NCBI GenBank assembly: GCA_035620395.1
Contig: DASPGW010000043.1
Coordinates: 1-46,076 of the forward strand
Reading direction: 5' to 3'
DNA length: 46,076 nucleotides
DNA from: Desulfuromonadales bacterium
GTDB taxonomy: Bacteria > Desulfobacterota > Desulfuromonadia > Desulfuromonadales > DASPGW01
Position numbers and translations under genes: made by a program. The notes beneath the pieces were generated by a model. That model saw only the letters and a list, made by a program, of their open reading frames with translations. It was not told where the DNA came from and did no database searches. Shown piece after piece: positions 35,987 through 44,012 of this stretch (its first letter is position 1; each line of letters begins with the position of its first letter).

Positions 35987-38900
35987 TCAATTCTCTTGCA
36001 CCTTGAACAGCAGCAAGACGGCTCGCCGGTTTCGCCGCAGGCAGTCCTCACTCGTTTCCGGGCACAGGGGCCGGTGTTCACCATGACTGCTCAATTGCAA
36101 AATCCGACGAGGGGCGACTCCCGTCTCGACCAGATACTTTCGGAGGGTCTCGGCCCGGCGTTGCCCGAGGCGGTTGTTGTAGCTTTCGCTTCCCAGTCGG
36201 CAGGTGTGCCCCTCAATAGCCACTGCGACCTCAGGATGGGCCAACAGGCTGTCCGTCACTGCAGCCAGTAATGACATGTCCGCTGCAACTGGCGTGGCCC
36301 GGTCGAAAGGGAAGTGGATCGCCGCCTGGCTTTGTTCCTCGAATGGCTCGCGGACGGAATCTTCGTAGACTTTTGGTTCGGCTGGTTCGTCTGGTCCGGT
36401 GGCGTTCCCGACTTTCGCTGGCGGCTGAGAGCGGGCCGAGCTGGCCGTGTCTCGCTGATCGGCCGGAGCCGAGGCCACCGAAGGCGACGGAGTGGTGATT
36501 GTAACGGTACGCTTCGCCGAGCCAGAGGCCGAAAAAACCTGCAGAACGATTTCACCTAGTTCGGCGAACTGATCCGACACCGGGGGGATGGTCATCTCGG
36601 TCTGGAATTTGCGCCCTCCCTGCTTGACGGTAAGCGGATAAACTCCGGCAGGCAGGAATGCCCCTGGCACTTTCCCTAGCGCCTCGCATCCCTGATGGGC
36701 TTCCAGGTCGAATTCGACTTGCTGGCTGTCGAGGTAGAATTCCCCATCACTCCCCGTCCAGAAGGTGACGGGTCCCGCCTGGGTTTCGAGGCTCAGTTCG
36801 GCATAAGCAAGCGGCGCGCGCCCATCTGTATCCTCCACGTTCAGGGTGCCGGTAAAGGCCTGGTATTTCTGCAACGGGAAGTTGATGCACGAGCCGCTGC
36901 GCAAGGGTGGCGAGATATTGAGCCGGACCCGGGGCATCAGAAAGTCGAGAGGGATGTCCTTGTCTTCGATGGAGATCTGGTTTTCGTAGTAGGAAGAGAG
37001 ATCGGGGATGACCACTTTCCCTCGGCGATTGGTCCGCCCGGAGGTCTGGCCGTTGACGTACACCCCCACGCCTTCGGCATCGCCGATGCTGACCAGGGCA
37101 AAGCTGTCGGTCACCGGCCGGGTCGGGGCGACGGTGTCGCCGATCTGCACCAGGGCGCCGGCCAGGGAGAGACGCAGATCTTCAGTGGTGAGCGTCTCGC
37201 TGCGGCCCAGACTGAAGTCGCCGCGCAGGATGGCATGCCGGGCGTTGTGCTGTGCCACAGAGTTGAGCAGATAGGTCTGGCTCCCCTCCCGTTGGGTACG
37301 CTCGCCCCGCACGTTCCACCCCGTCCCTTCGCCGGCGGGGGTGTTCCGCCGGGCTTCGAGCACCTGGATGCTCGCTCCCCGCTCGCGGCGTAAGGCACCG
37401 GAAACGGAATGATCCCGGTCGAAATACCAGGTGAGATTGACACCGGCCTCATGCGTGGTTTCGTTTTCTCGTATCTGGCGAAATGTGGCGTTGACGTACG
37501 TCCTTTTCCAGAGGCGGCGCGACCAGGAGAGGGTCAGGGTTTCGCGCTCTGGTCCGTTATGGCTTTCGCTTCGGGCGAGGTCGAGGCCAAAGGAGCCAAG
37601 TTGCGGGGTCACGTAGCCGATTCCCGCGAGGATGTTGAGTTTTCTCCTGAGAGTGGTTGCGTCCATATCGCCCAGGGTCCGGAACCCGGAGGAAAAACCC
37701 TGCAAGGCCAGGCGGCCGCGAAACCGGCGGTTGTAATATTCGTAGCTGAGGAAGCCGGCGGCGCCGGAATCTTCACCACTGCGACTGCCGGCCCCTTCGA
37801 GTCGCAGCAGGCCAACGCTGCCGGTTTTCATCGCCGATTCGATGCCGAGATTGGTCAGCCCGTCTCCGGCCTCGCCGCGCAGACCGAGGTTGAGGGAATC
37901 GGTCAGCCCGTAGCGGTGGAAAGCGGAGAACGCCAGGTCGGAGTAGCTGCTGCTCTCCTGCCCGAAGTCGCGCCGCAAAAGACCCATATTGTAGCTGTAC
38001 TCATGCAGGCCCCGGCGCAGGATCTGGTCGGTGAAATAGAAGGGGGAGACAATCCGCTGTTCCCGGCCGAGAGCATCCCGGACGACCACCTCGATGGTCT
38101 GGGCGCCGCCGATGCTCTGGAAGTTGCGCAGCTCGAACTCTCCGGGAGCGAAGCGCTCGGAGCGCACCCGTACACCGTCGACGTAGAGTTCGACGTCGGA
38201 GGGGAGCGACGCCATGCCGCTGAAGTCGAACAGGGGATAGCGGATGAAGTACGGGTCGATGCGGTAGAGCTTGGAGAAGCTCAGCCCTCCCATCTGTACC
38301 CGGCTGCCCAGTTCCCCCGAAAGGGCGAAGAAATCGCCGCCGATAACCCGGCGCAGCGTCTGGCGATCATCCCAGGTCAGACTGGTATTGAGGCGGACGA
38401 AGCGGGCGTCGTCGGGCGAGTCGGAGTAGAGGGTGTCGGTGAGCAGCAGCAGATCGCGATAGCGCACGCCGAGTTCGTTGCTGAGGGTCAGCCCCTCGAA
38501 GACAAAGTCGTCGCCGCCAGCCGAGTAGTCGATGCCGTAGTTAAGGAAAATGCTGCGGTCGCGGGGATATATGACATCGGTATGCCTGGTCGGCATCAGG
38601 TTGAGGGTGGTCTTTGCAAGAAGATCAGGGGTGGCAGTGAGCTCAAGGGTAAGAGTGTTCTCATCGAAGTGGTAGGCGACCCCTTCCATTGACTTCAGAG
38701 AGAGGTAGGCCGACCCTTCAATTTCGATCTGAGCGCCGGGCAGGTGAGTGAAATCCATAGCCGCGAGGTCGGCGGTTCGAACAAGAAAATCTCCGTCTTC
38801 GCCAAGTAGAACGAAAAAATCGCCCTTTGGCTGTTGGTTTAGCGTTATTGCGGTGATTATGGGTTCGTTTGCGTAGGTCGAAAGAGGGAAAAACAGAAAC

Positions 38901-39016
38901 AAGCAAAAGACCAAACAGCAAAACGCCGCTCTGCAGGTATTGAAAGAAGTGACTCTTTTACGAAACCATAGACAAGCAGGTCTACGGGGTAAGGCACATT
39001 GCCTTGTCCACATCAA
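35987..39016 (-). CDS. fimbrial outer-membrane usher fused to a C-terminal OmpA-like domain
   Basis: The 1009-aa protein has a signal-like N-terminus and an usher-like body of about 800 aa (repeated aromatic-terminated beta-strand pattern, position between chaperone and subunit genes). A Ser/Pro/Ala linker follows. The OmpA_C motif is VAIEGHTCRLGSESYNNRLGQRRAETLRKYL (35987 to about 36370). Confidence 0.8.
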   Translation of the reverse strand: MMWTRQCALPRRPACLWFRKRVTSFNTCRAAFCCLVFCLFLFFPLSTYANEPIITAITLNQQPKGDFFVLLGEDGDFLVRTADLAAMDFTHLPGAQIEIEGSAYLSLKSMEGVAYHFDENTLTLELTATPDLLAKTTLNLMPTRHTDVIYPRDRSIFLNYGIDYSAGGDDFVFEGLTLSNELGVRYRDLLLLTDTLYSDSPDDARFVRLNTSLTWDDRQTLRRVIGGDFFALSGELGSRVQMGGLSFSKLYRIDPYFIRYPLFDFSGMASLPSDVELYVDGVRVRSERFAPGEFELRNFQSIGGAQTIEVVVRDALGREQRIVSPFYFTDQILRRGLHEYSYNMGLLRRDFGQESSSYSDLAFSAFHRYGLTDSLNLGLRGEAGDGLTNLGIESAMKTGSVGLLRLEGAGSRSGEDSGAAGFLSYEYYNRRFRGRLALQGFSSGFRTLGDMDATTLRRKLNILAGIGYVTPQLGSFGLDLARSESHNGPERETLTLSWSRRLWKRTYVNATFRQIRENETTHEAGVNLTWYFDRDHSVSGALRRERGASIQVLEARRNTPAGEGTGWNVRGERTQREGSQTYLLNSVAQHNARHAILRGDFSLGRSETLTTEDLRLSLAGALVQIGDTVAPTRPVTDSFALVSIGDAEGVGVYVNGQTSGRTNRRGKVVIPDLSSYYENQISIEDKDIPLDFLMPRVRLNISPPLRSGSCINFPLQKYQAFTGTLNVEDTDGRAPLAYAELSLETQAGPVTFWTGSDGEFYLDSQQVEFDLEAHQGCEALGKVPGAFLPAGVYPLTVKQGGRKFQTEMTIPPVSDQFAELGEIVLQVFSASGSAKRTVTITTPSPSVASAPADQRDTASSARSQPPAKVGNATGPDEPAEPKVYEDSVREPFEEQSQAAIHFPFDRATPVAADMSLLAAVTDSLLAHPEVAVAIEGHTCRLGSESYNNRLGQRRAETLRKYLVETGVAPRRILQLSSHGEHRPLCPETSEDCLRRNRRAVLLLFKVQEN

Positions 39017-40876: not shown

Positions 40877-40978
40877 TGTGTTGCCTCCTTGTTCCTGCTG
40901 AGTGAATAATCAAGTGTGTTTCTACTTCCAGCCCATCTGGATGCGAACCCGGCAAACCGGTAATGCCGGAAAATCTGC

Positions 40979-41015
40979 ACAAAAAAGCGCCCATCTTCTG
41001 CCGAAGACGGGCGCT
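40979..41015 (-). terminator. intrinsic terminator forming the expression platform of riboswitch 1
   Basis: The minus-strand RNA reads GCGCCCGUCUUC-GGCA-GAAGAUGGGCGC followed by UUUUUUGUG. It lies between the aptamer and the pilin start codon. Confidence 0.8.
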
Positions 41016-41047
41016 CGAATTTGTGAAGAATACGGGTTCGCGCACCC

Positions 41048-41148
41048 GTCTCTTCGGCAACCCGGCTATCCGTGCCATCTGTTCGATGACCGAGGACCCG
41101 TGGCTTTGCGTCACCGGATTACTCCGGTTTTGCCAGTGTCGGAGACTT
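41048..41148 (-). promoter_or_regulatory. GEMM-I (c-di-GMP-I class) riboswitch aptamer, copy 1
   Basis: The minus-strand RNA is GUCUCCGACACUGGCAAAACCGGAGUAAUCCGGUGACGCAAAGCCACGGGUCCUCGGUCAUCGAACAGAUGGCACGGAUAGCCGGGUUGCCGAAGAGAC. It carries the GEMM-I hallmarks: GGCAAA(A)CC, a GNRA-capped hairpin, GACGCAAAGCC and ACGGAUAGCCGGGUU.CCGAA. Confidence 0.85.
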
Positions 41149-41167
41149 ACTCATTAAGATTTTGGTG

Positions 41168-41196
41168 AATCTAAATCGGCGTTCTGCCTTCGTCAA
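41168..41196 (-). promoter_or_regulatory. candidate sigma-70 promoter driving riboswitch 1 and the pilus operon
   Basis: On the minus strand: TTGACG (rc of 41191-41196), 17-nt spacer, TAGATT (rc of 41168-41173). The predicted start is about 10-15 nt before the aptamer. Confidence 0.55.
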
Positions 41197-41366
41197 GAGT
41201 TTATTGCAGGCGCGTGACAATTTTTTGTCTTGCGCTCAGTTGTTTCACATAGAGCAAAGGGCGTGCCATTTGGTTGGAGGGGCGAGGACATGAGGATGTT
41301 GCCCAGATAGATGCGGATTCAGGCGAATGCTCAAGCAGGCATGCATCGCCTTGTTGGGATTTGGCT

Positions 41367-41402
41367 GACTTTTTTTGTCATGCAGTGATGACAAAAAAAG
41401 TC
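41367..41402. repeat. AT-rich perfect 15-bp palindrome (hairpin)
   Basis: GACTTTTTTTGTCAT-gcagtg-ATGACAAAAAAAGTC lies 32 nt downstream of the stop of the 149-aa gene. An adjacent GTCA-N6-TGAC element follows. Confidence 0.7.
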
Positions 41403-41433
41403 ATATTTTTGACTTTCCGGAGGTTCTGATCCC

Positions 41434-41883
41434 TCAATACGCCACCGGCACCAAGGCGACCTGAAGCGGGTAGATTCCTTCGTGAACATCTGCCGGCAGC
41501 ACGATCCGCATGTCGAGCACCCGGGTAATCAGTAAGCCTGGATGCTCTCCTGCCAGCCTGACCGCATCTGTCAATCCGTTATCCGTCTGAAGCAGGATTT
41601 TTTCCGGTCCGCCACTGGCGACGTCAAAGCGGATTTCCTCTCGGATGTTGGTCTGCATCTGGATGGTGATGGACTGGGGAAGATCGATGTGTCCCCGGCG
41701 GATGTCTTCGGCTGTTACCCGGTAGCTGTTTGCCGGCTGGGTGGCGGAAAACTTGAGCCAGGGGCGAATGGTGGCCTGCACGCGTACAACCGCGCTTGCC
41801 GAAGTGGCTTGGGCCGGGACAGCCCAAGGATGGGCTGTTGCAAGTGCCAGAATCCCCGCGACTGCGAATTTCGCGACTCTCAT
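41434..41883 (-). CDS. secreted 149-aa protein of unknown function, possibly a divergent pilin-like subunit
   Basis: ORF track 41434..41922. I moved the start to ATG 41883 (MRVAKFAVAGILALATAHPWAVPAQA, a signal peptide). The protein looks beta-rich. The C-terminal EGIYPLQVALVPVAY resembles the G-x-Y-x-x-x-hydrophobic C-terminal strand of the three SCPU subunits. It has no Cys pair. Confidence 0.7.
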   Translation of the reverse strand: MRVAKFAVAGILALATAHPWAVPAQATSASAVVRVQATIRPWLKFSATQPANSYRVTAEDIRRGHIDLPQSITIQMQTNIREEIRFDVASGGPEKILLQTDNGLTDAVRLAGEHPGLLITRVLDMRIVLPADVHEGIYPLQVALVPVAY

Positions 41884-41891
41884 GGCGTTCA

Positions 41892-41997
41892 CTCCCTTCG
41901 GGAACCCGGCTATCCGTCCCACCTTCGCTGAGGCTTCGGTGGGCGAGGACCCGTGGCTTTGCGTCGCCGGATTTCTCCGGGTTTGCCGTTATCGGTG
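41892..41997 (-). promoter_or_regulatory. GEMM-I riboswitch aptamer, copy 2 (abuts the SD and start codon)
   Basis: The minus-strand RNA is CACUUCACCGAUAACGGCAAACCCGGAGAAAUCCGGCGACGCAAAGCCACGGGUCCUCGCCCACCGAAGCCUCAGCGAAGGUGGGACGGAUAGCCGGGUUCCCGAAGGGAGUGAACGCCAUG. The GGGAG SD lies inside the 3' closing region of the aptamer. Confidence 0.85.
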
Positions 41998-42082
41998 AAG
42001 TGTGAAGTGACGTTTGTTCTGATCAGTTGTAATTGTGATGGTCGTTTTCCGGTTCCGCTAATCCTCCTTGTCAGTGAATGCC

Positions 42083-42122
42083 CACCAAACACAAATGCCT
42101 ATCTTCATGTCCGAAGATAGGC
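42083..42122 (-). terminator. intrinsic terminator forming the expression platform of riboswitch 3
   Basis: The minus-strand RNA reads GCCUAUCUUC-GGACAU-GAAGAUAGGC followed by AUUUGUGUUUGG. Confidence 0.7.
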
Positions 42123-42166
42123 ACAGGCGCCAGCCCGGAAGTTTCCAGGCGCAACAAATGTCTGGC

Positions 42167-42275
42167 TTCTCTTCGGAGACCCGGCTATCCGTCCCGCCTT
42201 AGCTGTTGCTTCGGTGGGCGAGGACCCGTGGTTTTGCGTCGCCGGATTTCTCCGGGTTTGCCGTTTCGGAGACTT
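42167..42275 (-). promoter_or_regulatory. GEMM-I riboswitch aptamer, copy 3 (upstream member of the tandem pair)
   Basis: The minus-strand RNA is GUCUCCGAAACGGCAAACCCGGAGAAAUCCGGCGACGCAAAACCACGGGUCCUCGCCCACCGAAGCAACAGCUAAGGCGGGACGGAUAGCCGGGUCUCCGAAGAGAAG. It is near-identical to copy 2 over about 58 nt. It reads GCAAAACC instead of GCAAAGCC. Confidence 0.8.
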
Positions 42276-42297
42276 GAAACTTTACTCGTACGCCCAA

Positions 42298-42325
42298 AAT
42301 ATACCGCAGGTAAAAATGCTGTCAA
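42298..42325 (-). promoter_or_regulatory. candidate sigma-70 promoter of the tandem-riboswitch transcript
   Basis: On the minus strand: TTGACA (rc of 42320-42325), 16-nt spacer, TATATT (rc of 42298-42303), about 20 nt before aptamer 3. Confidence 0.6.
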
Positions 42326-42352
42326 GTAAATAATTTTTTGACGAAATTTCGA

Positions 42353-42385
42353 ACAAAAAAACCCCTCCGGTGTCCCGGAGGGGTG
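42353..42385 (-). terminator. strong rho-independent terminator of the CoA-transferase gene
   Basis: The minus-strand RNA reads ACCCCUCCGG-gaca-CCGGAGGGGU followed by UUUUUUU. Confidence 0.85.
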
Positions 42386-42416
42386 TCTGCACTGCATCGC
42401 AGGTGAATGGTCAGAA

Positions 42417-44012
42417 TTATTCGCAGAGGTCGATCTTGACGTCCCAGTTCTTGATCTTCATGGTACCGTTCTTCTCGAGGTTGAGATGCATCTTGAAGGC
42501 GCGGTCCCAGAGTTGCGGCTCGTGGCCGACCTTGCGGCGCAGGCAGTCGGCCTTGGCCATTTCGAAGTACTCGGTGAGAATCGGCTTGTAGTCCGGGTGG
42601 GCGCACTTGTCGATGATGACTTTGGCGCGGTCGCGCGGGCAGAGGCCACGCACGTCGGCCAGGCCCTGCTCGGTAATCACACAGTCCAGGTCATGCTCGG
42701 TGTGGTCGATGTGCGAGCAGTGCGGCACGACGCAGGAGATACCGGTCGGGTCGGTCTTGGACGGACGGCTCGAGGGGGTGTGCATCATCTTCAGGAAGCC
42801 GTTGCGGAGGAAGTCGCCCGAGCCGCCGAGGCCGTTGATCATGCGGGTGCCGCCGACCAGAGTCGAGTTGGCGTGCGCGTAGATGTCGATCTCGACCGGA
42901 GTGTTCATGGCGATGCACCCGAGACGGCGGATCGGCTCAGGCGCATTGGAGATCGACAGGGGGCGCAGGGTGCACTTGCCGAAGTACTTGTCCCAGTTGT
43001 CGAAGAAGCGGGGGAAGCCCGGGCTTTCGGACAGGGAGAGGGAGCAGGCGGAGGCGGCATCGCACTTGCCGGCGTCGAACAGGTCGAGAATGGTGTCCTG
43101 CAGCACCTCGGTGTAGACGGTCAGGTTCTTGAAGGGGCCCTTGGCCAGTCCGCCGATAACGGCGTTGGCGATGGAGCCGACGCCCGACTGGATCGGCAGC
43201 AGGTTTTTCGGGAGACGGCCAGCTTTCACTTCCGTCTGGAAGAAATCGATGATGTGGTTGGCGATCGCTTCGGAGGTGTCGTCCTGCTCGGCAAAGGCGC
43301 GGCCCTTGTCGCGGAGCTTCGACTCGACGACGGCAATGACCTTGCTCGGGTCGCAGGGGACGAAGGTGGTCCCGACGCGATCGTCGGTTCTGGTGATGCC
43401 TATGACCTGACGGTTCGGCGGGTTATTGGAGCAGATGATGTCGTGAATCCCTTCGAAGGAGGGCTGGCCGATGTTGACCTCGAGGATGATCTTGTCGCAC
43501 ATCATCAGGATTTCGGGAATGACGCCGCAGGAAGAGGTCGGCACCAGGCCGCCGTCCTCGGTGATCGCCGAAACCTCGATGATGCCGATGTCGAGCTTGC
43601 CGGTCGGGGAGTCCTTGGTGTAGAAGCCGTAGCCGAGGTCCTGGGCGAAGAGGGAGAGGTGCTTGTCGCCCATGCGGATGCGGCCTTCGTTGATACCGGC
43701 GGCGATATTCTTGCCGGTCTGATAGGGCCAGCGGCGGTCGATCATGTCGAGGGTCGCCCAGCGGTCCTCGGTCTCGGCGCCGACCGAGGCCCCGATGAAG
43801 AGATTGAACTTCCACTTGCCCTGCAGGTTGTTCTTCTCGACGTGGTTGGCCAGCGCGATGGGGACCACTTTCGGGTAACCGGCGGGGGTGAAGCCGGACC
43901 AGCCGAGATTCATCCCGGGTTTGAAGAACTGGACGGTCTGCTCAGGGGTCATCACCTTGTTGAGCAGCGACTTGCAACGTACCCGGTCTTGCAGTGTACC
44001 GTAATCAGACAT
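42417..44012 (-). CDS. acetyl-CoA hydrolase/transferase family enzyme (succinyl-CoA:acetate CoA-transferase-like)
   Basis: The 531-aa protein has NLGWSGFTPAGYPKVVP, IQSGVGSIANAV and INGLGGSGDFLRNG, typical of the AcetylCoA_hydro N/C domains (Ach1/AarC/Cat1-like). Confidence 0.85.
   Translation of the reverse strand: MSDYGTLQDRVRCKSLLNKVMTPEQTVQFFKPGMNLGWSGFTPAGYPKVVPIALANHVEKNNLQGKWKFNLFIGASVGAETEDRWATLDMIDRRWPYQTGKNIAAGINEGRIRMGDKHLSLFAQDLGYGFYTKDSPTGKLDIGIIEVSAITEDGGLVPTSSCGVIPEILMMCDKIILEVNIGQPSFEGIHDIICSNNPPNRQVIGITRTDDRVGTTFVPCDPSKVIAVVESKLRDKGRAFAEQDDTSEAIANHIIDFFQTEVKAGRLPKNLLPIQSGVGSIANAVIGGLAKGPFKNLTVYTEVLQDTILDLFDAGKCDAASACSLSLSESPGFPRFFDNWDKYFGKCTLRPLSISNAPEPIRRLGCIAMNTPVEIDIYAHANSTLVGGTRMINGLGGSGDFLRNGFLKMMHTPSSRPSKTDPTGISCVVPHCSHIDHTEHDLDCVITEQGLADVRGLCPRDRAKVIIDKCAHPDYKPILTEYFEMAKADCLRRKVGHEPQLWDRAFKMHLNLEKNGTMKIKNWDVKIDLCE

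Follow-up and report, generated by a model that had tools for sequence, protein, structure and literature searches.

The leader and its surroundings

The leader lies on the minus strand of a 46,076-nt stretch of DNA from an uncultured Desulfuromonadales bacterium (contig DASPGW010000043.1, assembly GCA_035620395.1), referred to here as the window. It separates a CoA-transferase gene from a 149-aa ORF and holds two matches to the GEMM-I riboswitch family, a distal and a proximal aptamer (Table 1). A preliminary description of this DNA had proposed two complete GEMM-I riboswitches in one leader: behind a TTGACA-N16-TATATT promoter, a first aptamer with its own intrinsic terminator, whose CCGAAGA tail is complementary to UCUUCGG in the terminator 5' arm, and a second aptamer running directly into a GGGAG Shine-Dalgarno (SD) sequence and an AUG. 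All of these features are present, at or within a few bases of the positions given for them.

Table 1. Features of the tandem leader and its neighbours (window coordinates)
Feature	Position	Strand	Remark
Succinyl-CoA:acetate CoA-transferase gene	44012-42417	-	upstream neighbour of the leader
Intrinsic terminator of the CoA-transferase gene	42384-42361	-	precedes the leader promoter
Sigma70-type promoter, TTGACA-16-TATATT	42325..42298	-	11/12 positions match
Distal c-di-GMP-I aptamer, including P1 ("aptamer 3" of the preliminary description)	42272..42168	-	RF01051 match at 42272-42172
Switching ("A") strand CCGAAGA	42176-42170	-	invariant in 8/8 tandem loci
Intrinsic terminator of the distal riboswitch	42124..42085	-	stem 42124-42095, tail UUGUGUUUGG 42094-42085
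T strand UCUUCGG in the terminator 5' arm	42117-42111	-	complement of CCGAAGA
SD-like motif AAGGAGGA in the inter-riboswitch spacer	42069..42062	-	conserved
5' strand of proximal P1 and extension, CACUUC-ACA-CUUCACCG	42009..41993	-	holds the anti-SD CUUC
Anti-SD CUUC	42000-41997	-	invariant among related leaders except L013
Proximal c-di-GMP-I aptamer ("aptamer 2" of the preliminary description)	41997..41897	-	RF01051
Proximal expression platform, P1 3' strand CGAAGGGAG	41900..41881	-	SD GGGAG inside
SD GGGAG	41896-41892	-	8 nt before AUG 41883-41881
149-aa ORF, regulated gene	41883-41434	-	signal-peptide-like N-terminus
Third GEMM-I riboswitch ("copy 1") and terminator	41143..40985	-	heads the SCPU pilus operon; outside the tandem

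The regulated gene had been described as encoding a secreted protein, in keeping with the N-terminus of the ORF. Its product matched no Pfam or NCBIfam family and no PDB sequence. An AlphaFold2 model (pLDDT 79) showed a beta-sandwich for which Foldseek returned no match at E <= 0.001, the best being a weak resemblance to chaperone-usher pilins. Used alone as a query, the protein found no match in genome contigs; a profile scan of the same kind of contigs located the family in one MAG. None of the 241 family representatives in the profile search carried a Pfam family. On the model and the N-terminus, the product is predicted to be secreted and to have a beta-sandwich fold; its family is uncharacterised.

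A third RF01051 match (41143-41052) follows the 149-aa gene and has a terminator at 41016-40985; this terminator shares its design with that of the distal unit, as had been noted. The operon that follows encodes two SCPU-domain pilins, a PapD-like chaperone and an usher with a C-terminal OmpA domain, and by this domain content is an archaic chaperone-usher pilus operon. The 149-aa gene precedes the riboswitch and the pilus operon in all loci with downstream coverage except L010, and where upstream sequence is available, its neighbour on that side is in most loci the CoA-transferase gene. An OFF response to c-di-GMP, as modelled below, would be unexpected for a gene adjoining a pilus operon and counts against the model.

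We collected 22 metagenomic relatives of the 149-aa gene, with 55-88% identity to the window protein. The tandem architecture is kept in orthologous loci: the two-aptamer leader recurs in four further lineage groups, on uncultured Desulfuromonadales-like contigs. With the window protein as reference (100%), the tandem loci are L017 (89% protein identity), L015/L016 (88%), L020 (87%), L018 (82%), L011/L012 (65%), L001-3 (63%) and L021/L022 (63%). Only the proximal aptamer is found in L004, L007, L010, L023 and L027, behind a longer and different leader, and L013/L014 have a short leader with a single aptamer.

A scan of 2.3 kb gave 4 promoter-like sites against 0.8 expected from shuffled sequence, and within the leader the sole such site precedes the distal aptamer. 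The TTGACA-16-TATATT form is kept in L015, L017, L020 and L013; L001 and L011 have TTGACA-17-TATAGT or TAAAGT at the same place. Transcription from this site would start about 20 nt upstream of the distal aptamer, and we infer that both aptamers are carried on one transcript. Were there an internal promoter in the spacer, the aptamers would sit on separate transcripts and not act in series. L004, L007 and L010 do have a TTGACA-like element about 110 nt upstream of the proximal aptamer; at the window, however, no promoter-like site was found on the minus strand between 42085 and 42000, and the 85-nt spacer between the distal terminator and the proximal aptamer is conserved in the tandem clade as RNA-like sequence. 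Separate transcripts are thus extremely unlikely. No ORF with a plausible ribosome-binding site and start was found between the two aptamers, in line with the original proposal of two riboswitches in a single leader. In an E-value-threshold Rfam scan of 40880-42420, RNA families other than GEMM-I gave chance-level matches only.

Aptamer class and ligand contacts

The preliminary description had named an RF01051 search as a check on its aptamers. In an Rfam scan at gathering threshold (35 bits for RF01051), both were returned at full length: the distal aptamer scored 57.4 bits (E 9.9e-09), 8 bits below the proximal aptamer at 65.7 bits (E 8.9e-11), and both matches span model positions 1-87. 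The two-helix fold on P1 is present, with GNRA-type loops (GAAA or GUAA) on the first helix. Pairing in the core is kept across the 8 distal orthologues through changes that include C-G to U-A, A-U to C-G and shifts among G-C, G-U and A-U. Three pairs of the distal window copy are non-canonical, namely a C.C, an A.C at the base of a helix and a second A.C in the distal helix, and its GAA/GAA internal loop is changed (GCUAAGG). The last of these mismatches, CCCACC/GGCGGG, had been pointed out before and is real. The C.C mismatch is common to both window copies, and the A.C pair at the helix base is common to the distal aptamers of the window, L015, L017 and L020.

Both aptamers carry G20, A47 and C92 at the ligand-contact positions, given here in Vc2 numbering. 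These are 42262, 42235 and 42176 in the distal aptamer and 41987, 41960 and 41901 in the proximal one. The distal and proximal aptamers of all related leaders also have G20. Position 20 is G in c-di-GMP aptamers and A in cGAMP aptamers (PMC9481103). Assignment to the cGAMP riboswitches (GEMM-Ib) was therefore rejected, since these require A20. By family match and contact bases, both window aptamers are c-di-GMP-I (GEMM-I) riboswitches, with c-di-GMP as the predicted ligand.

The c-di-GMP-I-GGC variant (RF03167) was also considered; the labels "GGC" and "UAU" of the variants were interpreted from the consensus lines of the models. In a relaxed-threshold scan the window aptamers scored 53.8 and 57.2 bits, below the threshold of 59, and the variant was rejected. 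All matches in these loci read GACGCAAA where the RF03167 consensus has GACGCGAA, in which G replaces A47. Where RF03167 gives the best score for an aptamer in a related locus, as it does for several, this is by these bases a competition between related models and no sign of a true variant.

The two window aptamers are identical over 33 + 24 nt around a single G/A difference (41957 G, 42232 A), as reported earlier, and this difference, together with the A-C mismatch, had been taken as a sign of diverging affinity. It lies at the base of the second helix, where it turns a G.U pair into an A-U pair, and the L007 aptamer ahead of the pilus operon has this A-U pair too. Judged from its place in the fold, it is a helix variant with no change to the pocket. 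With the G/A/C contacts intact in both copies, the suggestion of diverging affinity was not upheld.

These comparisons bear on whether the aptamers sense different cyclic dinucleotides, or different concentrations of one, and form a two-input or two-threshold gate. Geobacter relatives use GEMM-I variants for cGAMP (PMC9481103, PMC6456294), and among sister loci C92 varies in the distal aptamers only, being U in L015, L017 and L020 and A in L001; the contacts of the proximal aptamers are fixed as G20/A47/C92. In the window, however, both aptamers have G20/A47/C92, the A20 associated with cGAMP is absent, and the sole core difference near the pocket is the G.U to A-U change. A gate of this kind is very unlikely for the window.

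Expression platforms and predicted switching

The distal P1 pairs UCUCCG (42272-42267) with CG-AA-GAGA (42175-42168), the AA bulge being usual for GEMM-I. The terminator stem has 13 pairs followed by UUGUGUUUGG, and the hairpin folded alone reached -23.2 kcal/mol (z = -4.3). The U-tract is interrupted (UUUGUGUUU), which counts against the model. The switching strand can form a 7-bp A:T pairing, CCGAAGA:UCUUCGG, that is invariant in 8 loci. Across an alignment of 8 orthologous distal units, the P1 and antiterminator strands are likewise invariant (8/8) and show no covariation. The terminator behaves differently: 11 stem pairs are paired in 88/88 cells of the 8 sequences, and between the two tandem clades two pairs have changed on both sides (U-A to C-G) and three on one side. 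The compensatory changes in the stem bear out the terminator-first architecture proposed in the preliminary description.

Folding of partial and complete transcripts was examined using ViennaRNA. When the transcript extended to the terminator loop, the antiterminator was the minimum-energy fold (-70.2 kcal/mol), compared with -59.7 kcal/mol when P1 was enforced. For the complete distal unit the terminator was favoured (-85.1 kcal/mol), and it was retained when P1 was enforced: aptamer and terminator are compatible. The c-di-GMP OFF switch Cd1 has the order P-A-T-H, a coexisting aptamer and terminator, and an antiterminator formed by A:T pairing (PMC9262584). We read the distal unit as terminating transcription in the ligand-bound state because its layout is of this Cd1 type, unlike that of the Geobacter pilM ON switch. 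With ligand, P1 would hold CCGAAGA, the terminator hairpin and its U-rich tail would form and transcription would stop; without ligand, CCGAAGA would pair with UCUUCGG in an antiterminator and the polymerase would read on. On these models the distal unit is probably an OFF switch.

The lower score of the distal aptamer, its three non-canonical pairs and its changed internal loop could also mean that it is a decayed non-binder with its platform stuck in antiterminator read-through, so that only the proximal riboswitch works; the A at position 92 of the L001 distal aptamer suggests that loss of binding does occur in this family. Yet a score of 57.4 bits clears the 35-bit threshold by a wide margin, the contact bases G20, A47 and C92 are all present, and two of the odd pairs are not peculiar to this copy, the C.C being common to the proximal aptamer and the helix-base A.C to the distal aptamers of L015, L017 and L020. 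The P1, antiterminator and terminator strands are perfectly conserved, and the distal core was either source or recipient in a recent copying event between the two aptamers (see below). Decay of the distal unit is therefore improbable, and two binding-competent aptamers remain the preferred reading.

The proximal unit has a P1 geometry like that of the distal one, with CG/CG pairing and an AA bulge; its 5' strand is CUUCACCG, the 3' end of the aptamer is CCGAAGGGAG, and the 3' strand of P1 runs on as GGGAG. An SD embedded in the 3' strand of P1 is a classic OFF design. CUUC lies at a fixed distance 5' of P1, with GGAG 3' of it, in 11/12 distinct orthologous leaders; in L013 UUCU and GUGGG replace CUUC and GGAG. 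When the CG:CG pairs of P1 were enforced, the predicted fold extended into the CUUC:GGAG pairing. Both strands of this anti-SD:SD helix are invariant, which fits the model and leaves no covariation. Read-through transcripts would carry the proximal aptamer, and ligand-stabilised P1 (CUUCACCG paired with CGAAGGGAG) would hide the ribosome-binding site.

In the window clade a second CACUUC copy (42009-42004) lengthens the SD-sequestering helix, and folding predicts a paired SD both when P1 is enforced and when it is not (probability unpaired 0.15 vs 0.21). The direction in which P1 changes SD accessibility differs among loci, in nearest-neighbour models that ignore the tertiary structure of the aptamer. 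With a paired SD predicted for either state in this clade, the proximal switch is uncertain in its polarity and even in its effect. The placement of the SD inclines us, less firmly than for the distal unit, towards a translational OFF switch in which ligand-stabilised P1 occludes the SD.

Of the related leaders examined, only L023 and the spacerless L013 lack the spacer motif AAGGAGGA. A leader peptide translated from it was rejected, as no start codon follows at a suitable spacing; such minus-strand ORFs as the spacer has all begin within the terminator or the U-tract behind it and continue into structured RNA. A "decoy SD", in which AAGGAGGA would pair with the anti-SD when ligand is absent, was unsupported in the window clade by duplex energies: there the best anti-SD partner differs from the motif. 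In L004, L007, L010 and L011 these energies do support it, the motif region being a stronger partner for the anti-SD region than the real SD.

It is conceivable, then, that both aptamers bind and that the proximal one is not a simple SD-occluding OFF switch, acting instead as an ON switch through a helix register shift, or through access of Rho or RNase or a standby site at AAGGAGGA. The pairing of the SD in both states (CACUUC:GGAGUG and CUUC:GAAG), the conservation of the motif and its strength as a partner in those four loci point in this direction. Against it stand the classic OFF placement of the SD, the inconsistency of the decoy pairing among clades and the lack of any leader ORF after the motif. 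We regard such a proximal mechanism as unlikely and retain SD occlusion.

The leader thus holds two complete riboswitches of the same ligand class ahead of one ORF, with no ORF between them and a predicted platform for each: an intrinsic terminator closes the first unit, and the SD of the second lies inside its P1 3' strand. Our main reading, to which we assign a probability of roughly 0.7 (0.68), is a "bi-mechanism" tandem of two independent class-I c-di-GMP riboswitches controlling a single gene. The first switch apparently stops transcription and the second apparently hides the ribosome-binding site, both being predicted to turn expression OFF with c-di-GMP. For doublets of this kind one would ordinarily expect a steeper or two-level response. 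Expression would approximate the product of two binding curves, giving a steeper response, and mRNA already made could still be silenced by the proximal switch.

History of the tandem and relation to known systems

The two window aptamers are 92% identical over a 98-nt core and 87% identical over the Rfam matches. The preliminary description had explained their likeness by a recent duplication. This does not hold: the tandem is present in loci at 63-65% protein identity, and the copies there are only 67-70% identical. Within single loci the two aptamers share 69% identity in L015, 70% in L001 and 67% in L011. The window leader can be aligned along its full length, promoter and start codon included, with the leaders of L015, L017 and L020, the flanks being 79-100% identical; its distal core, however, is only 73-75% identical to theirs and carries the diagnostic bases of proximal aptamers (AAACCCGG, GAGAAAU and CCGGC). 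Because the leader is orthologous throughout and yet its distal core has proximal-type bases, the sequences indicate that the tandem is old and that gene conversion has recently homogenised the two window cores. The direction in which it ran is not clear-cut, since the L018 distal aptamer already has the window-type distal helix.

Recombination appears to have acted in L013 as well. The 5' half of its single aptamer is 86-88% identical to distal aptamers and its 3' half 85% identical to proximal ones; it looks like a chimera produced by recombination between the repeats, with the distal platform and the spacer deleted. The orthologous series thus shows a tandem in evolution, with the old arrangement, its homogenised form, a chimera left by collapse and distal copies with a substituted contact base, and it supplies natural variants that bear on position 92 and ligand choice.

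The distal U92 and A92 of the sister loci are the most interesting lead to come from this comparison; they concern relatives and not the window. If the U92 aptamers bind another cyclic dinucleotide, or bind with shifted affinity, the sister lineages would be natural two-input or two-threshold NOR gates, with the window representing a lineage set back to a single-input digital switch. It is doubtful, though conceivable, that the leader family as a whole is an evolutionarily plastic two-sensor module, in which the proximal sensor is fixed and the distal one is changed at its contact, converted (window) or lost (L013).

Tandem cyclic-dinucleotide riboswitches had been called rare in the preliminary description. 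The literature says otherwise: for c-di-GMP-I the main survey lists 347 doublets and 12 triplets, which exceeds the figures of every other class (Sherlock 2022, PMC9481103), and Geobacter sulfurreducens has several tandem GEMM-I leaders (PMC6456294). The kind of tandem seen here is already known and common, and the terminator-then-SD order of its platforms is a minor twist. Full-text literature searches found no description of an explicit mixed-platform c-di-GMP-I doublet, and Table 1 of the survey places c-di-GMP-I under "pseudo-cooperative" only, with mixed platforms unmentioned (PMC9481103). The window therefore offers a conserved example of predicted c-di-GMP control of one gene at transcription and then at translation, a two-level arrangement that the survey describes for SAM and does not list for c-di-GMP-I. 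With the third copy, three predicted c-di-GMP OFF switches are linked, in these uncultured Desulfuromonadales, to an uncharacterised secreted protein and to a chaperone-usher pilus operon of the archaic type.

Like the catalogued c-di-GMP-I doublets and the Bc3-Bc5 triplet of Bacillus thuringiensis, the window tandem consists of complete units of one class, each with its own platform and with no ORF between; as for the catalogued pseudo-cooperative tandems, a steeper dose response is expected. Unlike the c-di-GMP-I entries of the survey, its first platform is a terminator and its second a ribosome-binding site. The terminator-then-RBS ("bi-mechanism") arrangement is known from SAM-II/SAM-V and SAM-II doublets, where the proposed benefit is that a finished mRNA remains silenceable (PMC9481103). 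The window resembles SAM-II/SAM-V in having two OFF switches, predicted in this case, for one ligand. It differs from SAM-II/SAM-V in ligand and fold, its aptamers being near-identical and of the same structural class.

The distal unit is like Cd1 of Clostridioides difficile in its P-A-T-H order and in its antiterminator, formed between the P1 3' strand and the terminator 5' arm (PMC9262584). Cd1 is a single riboswitch from a different phylum, whereas the window linker carries a conserved hairpin of its own. A related group, the Desulfuromonadales, also provides the tandem GEMM-Ib leaders of G. sulfurreducens, such as the one ahead of GSU2885 (omcAHG), which likewise have two GEMM-I elements in series (PMC6456294). 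The characterised Geobacter GEMM-Ib riboswitches respond to cGAMP and have A20, pilM being an ON switch; the window aptamers, in contrast, have G20 and OFF-type platforms.

Position 92 and the second helix of the tandem aptamers

Comparison with metagenomic loci carrying relatives of the 149-aa gene (L handles) revealed changes at ligand-contact position C92 (Vc2 numbering) in distal aptamers. This residue was replaced by U in L015, L017 and L020 and by A in L001, where the C22-G45 pair had also become a compensatory U-A; all proximal aptamers kept C at position 92.

In the window, the second helix of both leader aptamers ends in a recurring cap, CCNCC-GAAGC-NNNN-GCGAA-GGNGG, with a symmetric GAA/GAA internal loop. 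L007 carries this cap in both its proximal and its pilus-operon aptamer, L023 carries it in the proximal one, and the L018 distal aptamer has a more divergent version; the remaining orthologues have unrelated caps.

Features of the leader and pilus-operon region in the window and related loci
Feature	Location	Strand	Remark
Distal aptamer, altered position 92	L015:386-482		U
Distal aptamer, altered position 92	L017:305-401		U
Distal aptamer, altered position 92	L020:1113-1209		U
Distal aptamer, altered position 92	L001:4637-4736		A
Orthologous leaders without distal aptamer	L004:4383-5000, L007:4346-5000, L010:4355-5000		
Lone leader aptamer	L013:2952-3055		distal/proximal chimera
Second-helix cap, proximal	window 41921-41945	-	
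Second-helix cap, distal	window 42196-42220	-	
SD-like motif AAGGAGGA	window 42062-42069	-	spacer
Palindrome, A/T-rich	window 41366-41403		perfect, 16-bp; TGAC-N7-GTCA half-sites
Sigma54 -24/-12 element TGGCACGCCCTTTGCT	window 41253-41268	-	perfect match
Sigma70-like TTGACG-17-TAGATT	window 41196-41168		
Pilus-operon aptamer	L013:3810-3901		G20/A47/U92
Usher gene	window 35987-39016	-	1009-aa product

Single-aptamer leaders and the spacer motif

Where the distal aptamer would stand, L004, L007 and L010 have sigma54-like GGCAYG-N4-TGGC and TTGACA elements; downstream, L010 encodes a sigma54-dependent response regulator, preceded by another GEMM-I. The lone leader aptamer of L013 showed 86-88% identity to distal aptamers in its 5' half and 85% identity to proximal aptamers in its 3' half, which includes the Shine-Dalgarno (SD) sequence. 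On these identities it is a distal/proximal chimera, as expected from recombination between tandem aptamers.

The SD-like motif upstream of the proximal aptamer was kept in all related leaders examined except L023 and L013, the latter having no spacer. Two copies each were found in L004, L007 and L010. In the window spacer the motif is not followed by a start codon; it might serve as a standby site, act as a decoy SD or bind a protein.

Upstream region and usher of the pilus operon

The sigma54 element lies upstream of the window's pilus-operon riboswitch and was kept in 8 orthologous loci, those retaining this riboswitch. The palindrome comes directly after the 149-aa gene, with the sigma54 element ~110 nt further downstream, and was kept in L015, L020, L013, L001 and L011. 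It is followed by no U-tract on the minus strand and resembles a site for an enhancer-binding protein more than it does a terminator.

The usher has an OmpA-like peptidoglycan-binding domain at its C-terminal end, and an usher-OmpA fusion was likewise annotated in related loci with an usher gene long enough for scoring. The pilus-operon aptamer of L013 lacks the U at position 20 of the c-di-GMP-I-UAU model, RF03168, and scored best against that model (70.7 bits).
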